Below, in pieces: positions 4,763-22,418 of a DNA stretch of 24,743 bases. The stretch is from contig JAICPV010000001.1 of the NCBI GenBank assembly GCA_025929655.1, positions 1-24,743 of the forward strand. The letters are read 5' to 3'. The notes below the pieces were generated by a model that was not told where the DNA came from, searched no databases, and saw only the letters and a program-made list of their open reading frames with translations. How positions within the stretch are numbered: the stretch's first letter is position 1; every line of letters starts with the position of its first letter. Made by a program: the position numbers and the translations under genes. Source of the DNA: Pyrinomonadaceae bacterium (GTDB taxonomy: Bacteria > Acidobacteriota > Blastocatellia > Pyrinomonadales > Pyrinomonadaceae).

Positions 4763-6175
4763 ATGGATAGAAGGTCGTTCGTCACAACCGCCGGAGCTTC
4801 TGCTGCCGGGCTCGCCGTTGCGTCATCCTCGCTCGAACGGCTTGTTGAGGCGATGGTCGGAAGACGAACTGCGGAATATTTCGTTCCCGGTTTCGGGGAA
4901 CTGCTTCCAACGCCAACCAGGAATACCGGCGAGACCTTCCTCGCCCTGCCAAAAGGTTTCGAGTACAACGTCATCGGAAAAGTTAAGTCGCAGATGTCGG
5001 ACGGGCGTCCGACGCCGTCGCGTCACGACGGGCAATGGACATTCAAGGTTGGCCGCGAGCTGCGGATCGTGCGGAACCATGAAGTGTCGAACAGTTCGCT
5101 GCCGGTACCTAACGCGGGCATCGGCACGGCAAACCATTACGACGAGACGTGCGGCGGCGGGACCACGACGCTAGTGATCGATCCGAAAAAGAAGGAGATC
5201 GTTCGCGATTTCGTCAGCCTTTCGGGAACGCTGATCAACTGTTCGGGAGGGCCGACGCCGTGGAATTCTTGGATCTCATGCGAGGAAACGACCTTAGGGC
5301 CAACCGTGCGAACGAACAGCAGCACGGGCAGGAAAACGGGCGGGTTCCTGAAGCCTCACGGATACTGCTTCGAAGTGCAAGCTTCGGCGAACAACAATCT
5401 GCCGCCGGTGGCTCTGAAAGCGATGGGACGCTTCACGCACGAGACGGTCGCTGTCGACCGAAAGACCGGCGTCGTATACGAAACTGAAGATTTGAATCCA
5501 AGCGGCTTTTACCGTTTCATTCCGAAGCGAAACAAGCGGCTCGCTGAAGGCGGTACGCTGCAGATGCTCGCGATCGAAGGGAAGCCGGAATACGACACTC
5601 GTACCGGTCAAAGACAGGGCAGTGTTTTGCCGGCGACTTGGGTGACGATCGACGATCCCGATCCTGCACATGCCGATGTCGATCCGTCGGCGGTGTTCAA
5701 GCAAGGGAAGGCAAAAGGCGGTGCTTCTTTCAATCGTCTGGAAGGGTCCTGCATGGATGATCGCGGGAACGTCTATTTCGACGCGACCAGCGGCGGCGAC
5801 AAACGCGGCGGGCAGATATGGCGTTACGAGCCGATGGGACGCGACCGCGGGAACCTCCGCCTGCTGTTCGAGTCGCCCAGCCGCGAGATCCTCGACATGC
5901 CGGACAATATGTGCTTGATGCCGAAGAGCAAACTCTTGTTCATTTGCGAAGACAGCGATTACGTCGGCGAAGGCGGCACGCCCGATAACTACGTCCGAAT
6001 TCTTACACCTGAGGGCAAGATGGCGAACTTTGCGAAGAACATCGTGAAGGGCTTTGAGCGTTCCGAGTTCGCCGGCTCGTGCTTTTCGAACGACGGCAAG
6101 ATATTCTTCCTCAACCTTTACACGATAGGGGCCACCTTCGCGATCTGGGGCGACTGGTCGAAATTCCGCTCGTAA
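4763..6175 (+). CDS. phoX: PhoX/DUF839-family alkaline phosphatase with Tat signal
   Basis: Probable start at ATG 4763 gives MDRRSFV (twin-arginine). Motifs RNHE, NCSGGPTPWNSWISCEE, GRFTHE, RLEG, PDN, EFAG. The track's 63-aa N-terminal extension overlaps the GNAT gene and is unlikely. Confidence 0.8.
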   Translation: MDRRSFVTTAGASAAGLAVASSSLERLVEAMVGRRTAEYFVPGFGELLPTPTRNTGETFLALPKGFEYNVIGKVKSQMSDGRPTPSRHDGQWTFKVGRELRIVRNHEVSNSSLPVPNAGIGTANHYDETCGGGTTTLVIDPKKKEIVRDFVSLSGTLINCSGGPTPWNSWISCEETTLGPTVRTNSSTGRKTGGFLKPHGYCFEVQASANNNLPPVALKAMGRFTHETVAVDRKTGVVYETEDLNPSGFYRFIPKRNKRLAEGGTLQMLAIEGKPEYDTRTGQRQGSVLPATWVTIDDPDPAHADVDPSAVFKQGKAKGGASFNRLEGSCMDDRGNVYFDATSGGDKRGGQIWRYEPMGRDRGNLRLLFESPSREILDMPDNMCLMPKSKLLFICEDSDYVGEGGTPDNYVRILTPEGKMANFAKNIVKGFERSEFAGSCFSNDGKIFFLNLYTIGATFAIWGDWSKFRS

Positions 6176-6179
6176 CTGG

Positions 6180-6261
6180 AAACTGTTAACTATAAAACTG
6201 ATAACTGTTAGAAACTGTCGACCTAACAGTTATCGGTTTTCCGGTTTTTAGTTAGCAGTTT
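6180..6261. repeat. Imperfect palindrome built from roughly 7-nt AACTG(A/T)T units
   Basis: 6194-6211 pairs with 6223-6240 (17/18) and 6180-6192 pairs with 6249-6261 (12/13), with an 11-nt loop. Confidence 0.85.
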
Positions 6262-9661: not shown

Positions 9662-9825
9662 TATTAAGGATCCCTTTAATATTGCGTGCCTTTCTATGAT
9701 GTTTATGCCTGTTAAATCGTTTGCCGCTCCAAACCTATAAGAACCTGGTCGCGTTATGACAGGGCCTTTTGCTTTTGACCGCCTATCTCTCTATATTAGA
9801 CCGAATCTCGCGGCAACTCTATCTC

Positions 9826-11319
9826 GTGGCGAACGAAGCGAAAAGCAACATTTCCAAAGGAAAGATCTGGCAGGTCATCGGCGCCTCATCCGTCGGTACG
9901 ATGATCGAATGGTACGATTTTTATATATTCGGCAGCCTTGCTCCGGTCATCGCCCCGCTTTTCTATCCTCCCGAAGACCAAACATTCGCCTACATCGCGT
10001 ATCTCGCGACATTTGCGGTCGGATTTGTGGTCCGCCCGTTCGGCGCTCTTTTCTTCGGACGGATCGGCGACATCGTGGGCCGAAAATACGCGTTTCTCGT
10101 TACGCTTCTCATCATGGGCGGAGCGACCGCCCTGATCGGTTTCCTTCCGACCTATGCTCAAATCGGTATTGCGGCACCTATCGCGTTGCTGGTCATACGT
10201 ATTCTTCAGGGCCTCGCGCTTGGGGGTGAATACGGCGGGGCGGCGGTTTATGTCGCCGAGCACGTACCGGACAAGCGGCGCGGGTTTTACACCTCCTTTA
10301 TTCAGATAACGGCCACGTTAGGCCTGTTTCTTTCGCTCGCGGTGATCCTGATCATTCAGAACCTGATGTCGCCGGACCAGTTCGCCGGAAGAGCAGAGGG
10401 TTTGAGCGGCTGGCGGATACCGTTTCTCATCTCGATCGTCCTTGTCGGCATTTCGCTTTACATTCGCCTGCGTATGAAGGAATCGCCGATCTTCGAGCAC
10501 ATAAAATCAGGAGGAATGACGTCGGCAAACCCTCTGGTCGAGGCGTTTACGAAATGGGCGAACTTGAAACGCGTTTTGATCTCTCTGTTCGGCGCGACCG
10601 CCGGGCAAGGCGTCGTATGGTACACCGGCCAGTTTTACGCGCTCTTTTACCTGCAATCGATCCTTAACGTGAATGCAACGTCGGCGAATTACATCGTCGC
10701 GATCGCTTTGCTTTTGGGGATGCCGTTCTTCGTCGTTTTCGGTGCTCTCAGTGACCGCGTGGGGCGTAAATGGATAATTCTCGCAGGCTGTCTGCTCGCG
10801 TTGGTCTCCTATTTGCCGATATACAAAGCGATGCAAGCCGCTGCCGGATCCAACGTGGTCACCGCCACGTCCCAGACGAATTTGTCGACCGGGGCGATCT
10901 CGTTAACGCCGCAATCGGTTGATCGGTACGGTGAATTGGTCGCAGCGCCGAAAGTACTGCCGTATTCGTCGTTCGGCGAGCTGGTATCAGATCGTTCGGC
11001 GCAGTTGCTTATCTTGCTCGTTTTCGTTCAGGTGATCTGGGTCACGATGGTGTACGGCCCGATCGCAGCTTATTTGGTCGAGGCCTTCCCTGCCAGAATT
11101 CGCTACACCGCTCTTTCGCTGCCCTACCACATCGGTAACGGCGTCTTCGGCGGCCTTTTGCCCGTGATAGGCCTATCGGTGGTCGCGTCCACCGGAAATA
11201 TCTACGCCGGGCTTTATTACCCGATGATCGTAGCGGCGATTACATTCATCGTCGGCGCCGTGTTCCTTAAGGAAACCCACGGGCATCGGATCTGGGAGGA
11301 GGTAGCTAACAGAAATTAG
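9826..11319 (+). CDS. MFS transporter, metabolite:H+ symporter (MHS) family
   Basis: GTMIEWYDFYIFG, VRPFGALFFGRIGDIVGRK, GGEYGGA, ESP, SDRVGRK motifs. The start is uncertain: GTG 9826 is preferred over the track's 9769. Confidence 0.88.
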   Translation: MANEAKSNISKGKIWQVIGASSVGTMIEWYDFYIFGSLAPVIAPLFYPPEDQTFAYIAYLATFAVGFVVRPFGALFFGRIGDIVGRKYAFLVTLLIMGGATALIGFLPTYAQIGIAAPIALLVIRILQGLALGGEYGGAAVYVAEHVPDKRRGFYTSFIQITATLGLFLSLAVILIIQNLMSPDQFAGRAEGLSGWRIPFLISIVLVGISLYIRLRMKESPIFEHIKSGGMTSANPLVEAFTKWANLKRVLISLFGATAGQGVVWYTGQFYALFYLQSILNVNATSANYIVAIALLLGMPFFVVFGALSDRVGRKWIILAGCLLALVSYLPIYKAMQAAAGSNVVTATSQTNLSTGAISLTPQSVDRYGELVAAPKVLPYSSFGELVSDRSAQLLILLVFVQVIWVTMVYGPIAAYLVEAFPARIRYTALSLPYHIGNGVFGGLLPVIGLSVVASTGNIYAGLYYPMIVAAITFIVGAVFLKETHGHRIWEEVANRN

Positions 11320-11354
11320 ATCTTTTTTGAGCCTTCCTTTACAACCTCTTCATC

Positions 11355-11572
11355 CTTTGCGTTCTTTGCGTCTTTGCGTGAAACCAATTTCTTGATAACC
11401 ATGACCGAAAATCAAATCGCAACTGTGATTAACGACTTGACCTATCCGATTAACAAACCTAAAGCTCGGATTGTTAGTTAATTTCGAAGTTGATCTTATA
11501 AAGGATGGGATAAAACGAGTTGTGAGTGGGTTGTGAGGAAATGCTTCACGCAAAGTCGCAAAGGCCGCAAAG
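11355..11572. repeat. Inverted-repeat cassette with 3xCTTTGCG arms enclosing a GxxExxY gene remnant
   Basis: Left arm 11355-11382 CTTTGCGTTCTTTGCGTCTTTGCGTGAA. Right arm 11545-11572 TTCACGCAAAGTCGCAAAGGCCGCAAAG. The arms are 25/28 complementary. Confidence 0.9.
11401..11536 (+). pseudogene. Internally deleted, frameshifted GxxExxY (PD-(D/E)xK nuclease-like) gene remnant
   Basis: ATG 11401 gives MTENQIATVI (family-typical N-terminus), then ND-LTY, a frameshift at 11446, and RLTNLKLGLLVNFEVDLIKDGIKRVVSGL* (11447-11536, family-typical C-terminus). The GxxExxY motif itself lies in the missing middle. Family recognised from memory, not by search. Confidence 0.8.
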
Positions 11573-11605
11573 AAAAACTTAAGCCACAGGTATTACATTT
11601 CACAA

Positions 11606-12057
11606 TTACAAATGTGGACTGAGCCTCTGCAGGATCGCCTCTCTCGATTGCACACCCACGATGCGGTCGACCTCGCGGCCGTCTTGTAGGATCAGCAAAG
11701 TAGGAATACTTTGAACCTGGAAACGCGCGGCCGTGCGTGGGTTTGCGTCCACGTCGAGTTTGCCGACGAGCACTTTCCCTGCGAGTTCGGAGGCGAGAAT
11801 TTCGACCGTCGGTGCGATCATCCGACACGGCCCGCACCATGCCGCCCATAGGTCGAGAAGAACAGGCAGTGCGATCTTTCAACAAGGGAATTGAAATTTG
11901 CATCAGTAACAATGACAGGGTCGGACGACGGTGCCGGAAGGGGATTCCTGCATTTTCCGCAAACAGGCCGCTGTTTGAGCGCTGCGTCGAACCTGACGCG
12001 GTTTTTCGCTCCACAGTTCTGGCAAGCAACGATCAAACTTTTTGCCGGCGCGGCCAT
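11606..12057 (-). pseudogene. trxC: Thioredoxin 2 (zinc-finger thioredoxin) split by a 1-nt deletion at about 11871
   Basis: N-terminal CQNC...CGKC zinc finger. Restoring one C in TCG C(C)A CTG gives [24 protein letters not shown], joining track ORFs 11818-12057 and 11606-11821 with an intact WCGPC site. May be a sequencing error. Confidence 0.88.
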
Positions 12058-17097: not shown

Positions 17098-17873
17098 TGG
17101 CGGCCACGAACGGAAACCAGGTACTGCGGACGCAAAACGCGACCATTCGCTTCGGCGGCCTCGTCGCGGTCAACGAGCTGGATATGGACGTCCGGCAGGG
17201 CGAGATCTACGGCCTGATCGGGCCGAACGGGGCGGGGAAAACGACGATCTTCAACCTCCTCACCGGTGTCTACGAACCCACGTCCGGCGATATCAATATT
17301 TTGGGAACGCGCGTCAACGGCCTGCGTCCTTATCAGATCTCGCGGCTCGGCGTTTCCCGAACTTTCCAGAACATCCGCCTTTTTCCGAGCATGACGGTTC
17401 TGGAAAACGTTGTGACCGCCTGTCACCGCCACGCAAAACAATCGATGGCGGATGCCGTTTTCCGCCTACCGCGCTATTTCAAGGACGAACAGGAACATCG
17501 CGATTTCGCTCTAGAGCTGTTGAGCATTTTCGAGCTGGAAAAATACAAGAACGAAGGCGGAACTTCTCTCCCGTATGGGAACCAGAGGCGGCTGGAGATC
17601 GTTCGTGCCCTGGCGACGCGCCCGCAGCTTCTTTTGCTCGACGAACCCGCCGCGGGGATGAACCCGTCGGAGCAGGAAGACCTGACCGCTCTGATCAAAG
17701 AGGTTCGCGACAAATTCAACCTGACGATCATCCTTGTCGAACACAACATGCGCGTCGTGATGGGCGTCTGCGACCGCATCCAGGTGGTCGACTACGGCAA
17801 ATCGATCGCGCTCGGACTGCCGCAGGAGATCAAGAGCGATCCGAAGGTGATCGAAGCGTATTTGGGAGATTAG
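17097..17873 (+). CDS. livG: Branched-chain amino acid ABC ATP-binding protein
   Basis: FGGLVAV, GPNGAGKTT, RTFQNIRLF, LPYGNQRRLEI, LLLDEPAAG, VIEAYLG. Confidence 0.93.
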   Translation: MAATNGNQVLRTQNATIRFGGLVAVNELDMDVRQGEIYGLIGPNGAGKTTIFNLLTGVYEPTSGDINILGTRVNGLRPYQISRLGVSRTFQNIRLFPSMTVLENVVTACHRHAKQSMADAVFRLPRYFKDEQEHRDFALELLSIFELEKYKNEGGTSLPYGNQRRLEIVRALATRPQLLLLDEPAAGMNPSEQEDLTALIKEVRDKFNLTIILVEHNMRVVMGVCDRIQVVDYGKSIALGLPQEIKSDPKVIEAYLGD

Positions 17874-17936
17874 TTCGTGGTTCGTTGATCGTTGTTCGTT
17901 GCATTCATCACGATCAACCAACAACCAACAACGAAC
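17873..17936. repeat. Heptad-unit palindrome filling the livG-livF gap
   Basis: Left arm TTCGTGG TTCGTTG ATCGTTG TTCGTTG. Right arm CACGATCAACCAACAACCAACAACGAAC. The arms are 22/27 complementary. Confidence 0.85.
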
Positions 17937-22234: not shown

Positions 22235-22335
22235 CAGTTACCTTTTATTAATTGCGGGTTAACGGCCTTTTGGGGCAAACTGTGATTTTAACAAAAACCC
22301 GATTGTATTCAAACGAAACGCCGTATTATTGACCT

Positions 22336-22403
22336 CTTTGCCATCCTGGCGTCTTTGCATGAAAAAAAGCTTTGTTTCACGCCAAGCCGCAAAGAACGCA
22401 AAG
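22336..22403. repeat. Empty copy of the CTTTGCG-arm palindrome
   Basis: Arms 22336-22364 and 22375-22403 are 22/29 complementary, with a 10-nt loop. The reverse complement of the right arm matches 11355-11383 at 27/29. Confidence 0.88.
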
Positions 22404-22418
22404 CGATTTGATCCTTAG

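Follow-up and report, generated by a model that had tools for sequence, protein, structure and literature searches.

The nearest systems in print to the locus presented here are the following: (i) the REP/REPIN repeats with their RAYT genes (PMC3116915; PMC3337134); (ii) the Ssn nucleases with their NTS/SRM repeats (PMC11893778); and (iii) the intervening sequences (IVSs) of 23S rRNA that bear an open reading frame (ORF) (PMC4990558). The Ssn enzymes, of the GIY-YIG type, cleave single-stranded DNA; every NTS forms a full 30-bp hairpin by itself, and such repeats occur on both sides of 14-42% of ssnA homologues (PMC11893778). The GxxExxY proteins (PF13366), for their part, constitute a large family distributed across many phyla, whose function is given as unknown (PMC3424549). 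A full-text literature search returned no paper tying GxxExxY/PF13366 to flanking repeats, and searches for the family names and for IVS-like cassettes found no description of the design reported below. A hairpin-bounded nuclease cassette of this type appears to be undescribed in print.

The locus lies in a window of 24,743 nt (the whole stretch of DNA that was analysed), which is contig C107 of a fragmented soil metagenome-assembled genome (MAG) from a Pyrinomonadaceae bacterium (600 contigs, 2.95 Mb, 54% G+C, ~90% complete). It is probably what decay has left of a hairpin-bounded GxxExxY nuclease cassette, that is, of a heritable unit of gene plus arms which decays toward a bare hairpin. The first-pass annotation of the window had described 28-bp inverted arms, paired at 25 of 28 positions, around a 136-bp gene relic between the convergent 3' ends of an MFS transporter gene and trxC, and all these elements were recovered on re-analysis. 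The inverted repeat occupies positions 11355-11382 and 11545-11572 (28 nt per arm, 25/28 paired, 89% complementary), with 162 nt between the arms. On the forward strand, the left arm (11355-11382) reads as three CTTTGCG units, separated by the spacers TT and T, followed by TGAA; the right arm (11545-11572) starts with TTCA and continues with three CGCAAAG units separated by the spacers T and GC. By direct reading, all three arm mismatches fall in the 1-2-nt spacers between CTTTGCG units. The MFS gene (9769-11319, forward strand) has the same orientation as the relic and its stop lies 35 nt upstream of the left arm, while trxC (thioredoxin 2; 11606-12057, reverse strand) converges on it and has its stop 33 nt past the right arm. 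In the assembly, trxC is frameshifted, being split into two frames (11818-12057 and 11606-11821) with a break near 11868. Contigs of three other metagenome runs contain an additional G after 11868, with which trxC would read in one frame; the break is either an assembly error or a strain-specific frameshift. Around the relic, no sigma-70-like promoter or intrinsic terminator pattern was found, and the sequence holds no direct repeat or target-site duplication flanking the arms.

Between the arms, all on the forward strand, the following segments can be differentiated: (i) a leader from the left arm to the ATG (11383-11400), similar both to the leaders of intact CTTTGCG-clade cassettes and to the left part of the loop of gene-less hairpins (TGAAA..CTT); (ii) codons 1-12 of a GxxExxY gene (MTENQIATVIND; 11401-11436), with the N-terminus of the CTTTGCG protein clade and the deletion junction after 11436; (iii) the codons LTY (equivalent to ~93-95 and including the invariant Y95) plus one leftover base at 11446 (11437-11446), where a loss of 2 nt causes a frameshift; (iv) the 29 C-terminal codons and the stop, in another frame (11447-11536), matched by TIGR04256 positions 93-116, by PF13366 and by our own HMM; and (v) a short trailer ahead of the right arm, delimited by direct reading (11537-11544). 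From the ATG at 11401, the first frame (11401-11445) reads MTENQIATVINDLTY and, past the extra base at 11446, the second frame (11447-11533, with the stop at 11534-11536) reads RLTNLKLGLLVNFEVDLIKDGIKRVVSGL. From ATG to stop, the relic measures 136 nt.

The assignment to the GxxExxY family, which the first-pass annotation had put forward, was supported by profile searches. The stitched peptide matches TIGR04256 (GxxExxY) with an E-value of 2e-5 over profile positions 89-116 of 116; its score of 24.9 bits stays below the cut-off of 35, as these positions are the only ones of the profile left in the relic. Against PF13366 it scores 23.7 bits, above the cut-off of 22. When solved structures were searched by sequence, no meaningful match was obtained. 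Moreover, when compared with C348 (locus L002), an intact cassette of this genome with CTTTGCG arms, the relic aligns over its full length, arm to arm, across one large internal gap, the aligned parts being the left arm, the leader, codons 1-12, the last ~33 codons, the trailer and the right arm. The gap is in frame and runs from ~D12 to ~L93, and the 2-nt loss after LTY is a separate event. As had been noted at first reading, only the N- and C-terminus persist: ~codons 13-94 are absent relative to C348, and with them the invariant G22, G24, E27, Y30, D67, E77 and K79, so that of the invariant columns only Y95 is kept. The relic is a pseudogene of the GxxExxY family and not a functional member of it.

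The deleted form is present, with 0-2 differences, in contigs from three independent soil metagenomes and from one run of a kind guessed as RNA; it is therefore not an artefact of the MAG. The relic is fixed in the populations sampled, which come from several soils; the lay-out of the reads among populations sharing the relic revealed the relic form only, and no variant without it. Two kinds of read joints were considered as possible empty sites. Those skipping 157-165 nt were rejected, as they correspond to other arm copies with short loops (their short sides cover 20-29 letters), and a joint from 11303 to 11634 was set aside on account of the unknown letters between its sides. In three runs, a strain variant was observed with 73 other letters in place of the 96 nt at 11259-11354 (MFS C-terminal codons plus spacer); the exchanged stretch stops exactly at the outer edge of the left arm. 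The possibility that a chance palindrome coincides with a spurious peptide match, or that the MAG was mis-assembled at this point, has nothing in its favour except the fragmentary HMM score below the TIGR04256 cut-off. It is refuted by the PF13366 score, by the end-to-end alignment with the intact cassette, by the identical sequence in independent metagenomes and by the shifted-window control presented below (3/354), and its probability is negligible.

The intact relatives of the relic are predicted PD-(D/E)xK nucleases, since they combine a conserved E, D and ExK with an alpha-beta core in the structural model. In an alignment of 55 proteins of the genus, G22, G24, E27, Y30, D67, E77, K79 and Y95 are invariant. 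The AlphaFold model of an intact relative has a pLDDT of 93.6 and its nearest solved folds, according to Foldseek, are Cas4 SSO0001 (TM 0.58, probability 0.99), the AdnAB nuclease domain and lambda exonuclease, with weak E-values (at least 0.015). Intact genes are under purifying selection: the same-site orthologues C348 and that of genome G026 differ by 58 synonymous versus 8 non-synonymous codon changes.

Regarding the association between gene and arms, all four GxxExxY genes that this genome retains in intact or nearly intact form (4/4) are located in the loops of periodic hairpins with ~3 tandem units per arm. The arm units of these genes (C368, C348, C242 and C461) are all different, namely CCGAGACG, CTTTGCG, CACAGAGA and TTCCGTG, respectively. 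The last of them (G000:C461:236-703) has its last ~26 codons in another frame, owing to a frameshift near the 3' end which may represent an early step of decay. Apart from the relic, these four genes and the out-of-frame 3' end of C461, our own HMM detected no GxxExxY sequence in this genome. The sample was then extended to 60 GxxExxY genes of the genus, drawn from its better-assembled genomes, taking as criterion a gapless inverted repeat with a score of at least 14 around the gene, and windows shifted by 1-2 kb inside the same loci served as controls (n=354). Bracketing inverted repeats were found around 37 of the 60 genes (62%), versus 3 of the 354 shifted controls (0.8%); hence, intact GxxExxY genes bear arms well above background, in this genome and in the genus alike. 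Of the two outcomes that the first-pass annotation had named as refuting its reading (no family match of the peptide, and arms at background frequency around intact genes), neither was obtained.

Arms and proteins have also diverged together. When the 11 arm classes are placed on the protein tree, 14 changes are needed, versus a mean of ~39 (minimum 34) in 300 label shuffles; as related rows share labels, this test shows co-inheritance and does not yield a probability. The CTTTGCG-armed genes form one protein clade with 99% support, and the arms of its sister clade (CTTTGTG) differ by one base. The N-termini of the CTTTGCG clade follow the pattern M[HT]EN[EQD]IA..IVD, which is also that of the relic, and on these features the relic belongs to this clade. 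Complementarity between arms amounts to 93% in core columns and 79% in non-periodic columns; this latter value led us to reject the notion that arm pairing is a mere by-product of the repeated cores. Within the genus, the CTTTGCG clade occupies at least six different loci and the CACAGAG 'MEND' clade five, while one genome (G061) harbours two diverged copies at different sites. That GxxExxY genes and these repeats form one cassette-like element, as first proposed from the window, is supported by the correspondence between arm class and protein clade and by the gain and loss of the whole as a block.

This gain and loss can be followed at two junctions. The MFS 3' junction was compared across 80 Pyrinomonadaceae species, among which these states were distinguished: (i) empty, as the first-pass annotation had anticipated for sister genomes, in the nearest relative (L099), whose MFS and trxC stops overlap, and in L104, L111, L121, L134 and L137, whose stops lie 3-30 nt apart; (ii) full cassette in L169 (CTTTGCG clade, in the orientation of the relic) and L142 (in the opposite orientation); (iii) broken, frameshifted gene in L109 and L167; (iv) relic, by internal deletion in this window and by 5' truncation in L106, which has lost its left arm and all of its CTTTGCG-clade gene except the final 26 codons, with these codons and the right arm placed directly against the MFS stop; and (v) bare hairpin of another unit class (TTATTCA) between MFS and trxC in L103. 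A single-arm state was not seen at this junction among the 80 species. In L010, the MFS 3' junction contains gene-less nested hairpins with the units ACGCGAA and CGCTAAT; intergenic 3' junctions seem, from these sequences, to be reused by different hairpin classes. At the MFS/decarboxylase junction, species differ in the orientation of the cassette (L169 versus L142, L109 and L167), which could reflect independent insertions or inversion of the loop via recombination between the arms.

At the purM-purN junction, the series is as follows: (i) empty in G034 (L092), whose genes overlap in ATGA, and in G032, with an 18-nt gap; (ii) full cassette in this genome (C242); (iii) relic by internal deletion in G006 (L096; G006:C256:5400-6100), consisting of the left arm, ~17 codons and the right arm; (iv) bare hairpin of the same arm class, with a 21-nt loop, in G014 (L091); and (v) one arm, the right one, in G009 (L094). 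Both in the full and in the relic form, the outer end of the left arm includes the stop codon of purM (TTAGCC...GGCTAA). The 21-nt loop of G014 seems to keep the last codons of the gene. A broken (frameshifted) gene was not seen at this junction.

The first-pass annotation had called the relic 'MITE-style'. One part of this description stands, in that the relic is an internally deleted, non-autonomous derivative. The other part does not: the deleted form is single-copy, it has no close match among the intact copies sampled, and it shows no movement among near-identical populations. Its loop is unique both in this genome and among 60 relatives, where recurrence is limited to the arms. A candidate second relic (C77:157-386, with a 172-nt 'loop') was rejected, as it turned out to be a short hairpin plus an extra right arm. 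The relic is 72-77% identical to every sampled CTTTGCG-clade cassette, including the same-site cassette of L169; no intact near-parent was found in this genome or among the sampled clade members, and an exact-pattern scan of metagenome contigs for the intact parent gave nothing. Given its single copy and its 72-77% identity to intact copies, the relic is therefore to be regarded as an old decay intermediate in place and not as an amplified MITE.

This genome contains 58 tandem CTTTGCG pairs versus one intact CTTTGCG-clade gene, a disproportion reminiscent of REPIN/RAYT systems. In such a scheme, bare hairpins replicate and are moved in trans by a repeat-flanked, single-copy nuclease gene, and the relic would be a true MITE transposed after its deletion. 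The flanking of the gene by its own repeats in inverted orientation agrees with it, as does the joint persistence of repeat and gene across the genus. We nevertheless regard it as quite unlikely: the deleted form does not recur beyond its arms, the gene encodes a PD-(D/E)xK nuclease and not a Y1 transposase, every genome has many arm classes and several genes, and hairpin-rich genomes exist without the clade gene. In fact, there are 64 tandem CTTTGCG pairs in G008 (99% complete) and 107 in G015, and no CTTTGCG-clade gene at 54% identity or more was found in either of them, an assembly gap being possible. A strict co-occurrence of CTTTGCG hairpins with the clade gene is rejected by these two genomes, and a strict dependence of the hairpins on a resident cognate nuclease is thereby weakened.

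A decayed cassette remains the preferred reading for the locus, and the gene-less hairpins of this genome can be examined in that light. The loops of its periodic hairpins are bimodal in length, with either 0-59 nt (44 loci) or ~340-430 nt, and the relic is among only four intermediates. Complete CTTTGCG hairpins (~11 in this genome) have loops of 12-28 nt which begin like cassette leaders. The window itself holds three gene-less periodic hairpins, with loops of 10-17 nt, at 6174-6260 (unit AACTG(T/A)TA), 17873-17929 (GTTCGT) and 22333-22405, the last of which is a degenerate hairpin of the CTTTGCG class, the same as that of the relic arms. Elsewhere, eight or more CTTTGCGG units follow one another head to tail on one strand (G014:C1:286205-286267), in a long array that looks like an expansion of arm units without a partner arm. 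Two further loops of periodic hairpins in this genome are occupied by four-helix-bundle genes (G000:C26:3392-3854, of class AAACTAA, and G000:C475:10800-11216, of class AAAGTGAA) which, judged by their sequence, are of the 23S-IVS-protein kind; several gene-less hairpins of the AAACTAA and AAAGTGAA classes are present elsewhere in the genome. Hairpins of one kind thus accommodate two unrelated families, GxxExxY and four-helix-bundle, and it is not necessarily the gene in the loop that mobilises the element.

The excess of gene-less over occupied hairpins also invites the opposite order of events, in which hairpins (of host origin, or selfish and REP-like) come first and a GxxExxY gene invades its cognate loop by cutting, being copied in via arm homology, with the relic as a stage of degeneration. 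Such homing would account for the match between arm class and protein clade, for the TGAAA..CTT start shared by the loops of bare hairpins and the cassette leaders, for the frequency of degenerate copies and for hairpins in genomes without the cognate gene. The junctions tell against it, as the empty purM-purN and MFS-trxC sites have no hairpin whatsoever, their genes overlapping or abutting, coding ends often lie inside the arms, and relics with a deleted interior indicate that loss yields shorter loops; the codons apparently kept in the bare-hairpin loop of G014 point weakly in the same direction. On balance, homing into older hairpins is an unlikely origin for the relic.

The position of the cassettes relative to their neighbours raises a further alternative. 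In 43 of 47 cassettes, the gene next upstream runs in the same direction, and in 26 of 47 the left arm lies between -10 and +16 nt from the stop of that gene. When folded as RNA, the element closes its arms with z = -6.3 relative to shuffles, without a match to any Rfam family. The relic loop sequence occurs, in addition, in one run of a kind guessed as RNA, at depth 2 and with DNA carry-over possible. These facts, together with the presence of 23S-IVS-protein-kind genes in the same type of hairpin, would suit an element acting at the RNA level, similar to a 23S rRNA intervening sequence: its stem would be cut by RNase III, thus freeing or stabilising the loop and the upstream mRNA, the nuclease would have a role unrelated to the arms, and the relic would stabilise or insulate the MFS transcript at its 3' end. 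Arm mismatches on the sense strand comprise 64 G-U-compatible versus 42 A-C pairs and 132 transversions (~p 0.03 by normal approximation, with related loci); this mild G-U excess leans toward RNA but is too weak to decide between an RNA and a DNA hairpin, and transversion mismatches outnumber transitions. Furthermore, a plain RNase III stem requires neither tandem-unit cores better conserved than their spacers nor units that diverge with the protein clade. We thus consider a purely RNA-level element improbable as the explanation of the locus.

The reading that we retain as probable is that of a decayed cassette, with the following course of events. An intact cassette consists of a left arm (~3 tandem units of 7-10 nt), a short leader, a gene of ~125 codons for a predicted PD-(D/E)xK nuclease and a right arm that is the inverse of the left one. 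Because the junction is empty in sister species, a CTTTGCG-clade cassette was gained between MFS and trxC in this lineage, placed just downstream of the MFS gene and co-oriented with it, in the usual position relative to an upstream gene. One in-frame deletion of codons 13-94, and later the loss of 2 more bases, then removed every catalytic residue, leaving as remaining product a long stem with a 162-nt loop in the MFS 3' region, which is fixed in the population. At other sites, the same route can be observed, from full cassette to broken gene, internal-deletion relic and, finally, bare hairpin, so that at least part of the gene-less periodic hairpins are end products of decay. As this genome has only ~11 complete CTTTGCG hairpins and a single relic, another origin is possible for most bare hairpins.

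As for how intact cassettes operate, they might be transcribed by read-through from the upstream gene, and their arms would pair in the read-through RNA and could also pair in single-stranded DNA. The nuclease of each clade would recognise the repeated units of its own arms; were this so, arm type and protein clade would diverge together and the six units of a cassette would stay alike. Arm recognition might likewise underlie the rare spread to new intergenic sites. We infer the mobility of the cassettes from between-species comparisons only, in which no recombinase or target-site duplication for their movement was found. A broader proposal is advanced here as a tentative one, more doubtful than not. 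According to it, GxxExxY proteins would be sequence-specific nucleases recognising the tandem 7-10-nt units of their own arms and, together with these arms, would make up undescribed self-propagating intergenic cassettes, whose decay would be a major source of periodic hairpins in Acidobacteriota and other phyla and of which ORF-bearing rRNA intervening sequences would be a special case.

The locus and the two junction series constitute direct comparative evidence for a gene-arm unit, for its gain and loss as a block and for its decay by internal deletion to bare hairpins. They offer an explanation of how at least some of the many intergenic hairpin repeats in these genomes arose and provide each GxxExxY clade with an obvious candidate substrate, i.e., its own arm units. 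If sequence-specific, the small GxxExxY nucleases could serve as tools, as the Ssn family did.

When compared with known elements, the relic resembles a MITE in having terminal inverted repeats around a gutted interior from which the catalytic gene was lost, but, unlike a MITE, it has no target-site duplication, no amplification (being single-copy) and no known transposase. Similarly, the cassettes share with homing endonuclease genes the presence or absence at orthologous sites, the frequent frameshifted and deleted copies and the small size of the nuclease; unlike them, they bring inverted arms of their own, no target hairpin could be recognised at the empty sites examined, and no intron or intein is involved.

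The three systems mentioned at the outset each share the logic of a nuclease or ORF plus repeats, and each departs from the cassettes in at least one defining feature. As in REP/REPIN and RAYT systems (PMC3116915; PMC3337134), hairpin repeats are dispersed over intergenic regions and flank a low-copy gene in inverted orientation, repeats and gene are co-inherited over long times, and each genome holds several repeat families with a gene of their own. Contrary to RAYT, which is a tyrosine transposase of the IS200/IS605 type (Y1), the cassette gene encodes a PD-(D/E)xK protein of 125 aa; contrary to REPINs, the arms are made of ~3 tandem units of 7-10 nt that pair across the gene, which is thus placed in the loop, and hairpins of the cassette type are also found in genomes without the cognate gene. 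In ORF-bearing 23S IVSs (Coxiella, Leptospira; PMC4990558), there is likewise a long stem with a small ORF in its loop and there are ORF-bearing and ORF-less forms, and four-helix-bundle genes of the IVS-protein family occur in the same kind of hairpin in this genome; nonetheless, the relic lies between the protein-coding genes MFS and trxC instead of within rRNA, and belongs to another gene family. Finally, Ssn (PMC11893778) is also a widespread small nuclease whose gene has a dispersed repeat on either side and whose repeat variants are tied to nuclease variants, recognition having been demonstrated for Ssn and being presumed for GxxExxY. While in the Ssn/NTS system each flank is a complete hairpin, in the GxxExxY cassettes, with their predicted PD-(D/E)xK fold, each flank is one half of a single hairpin which closes around the gene.
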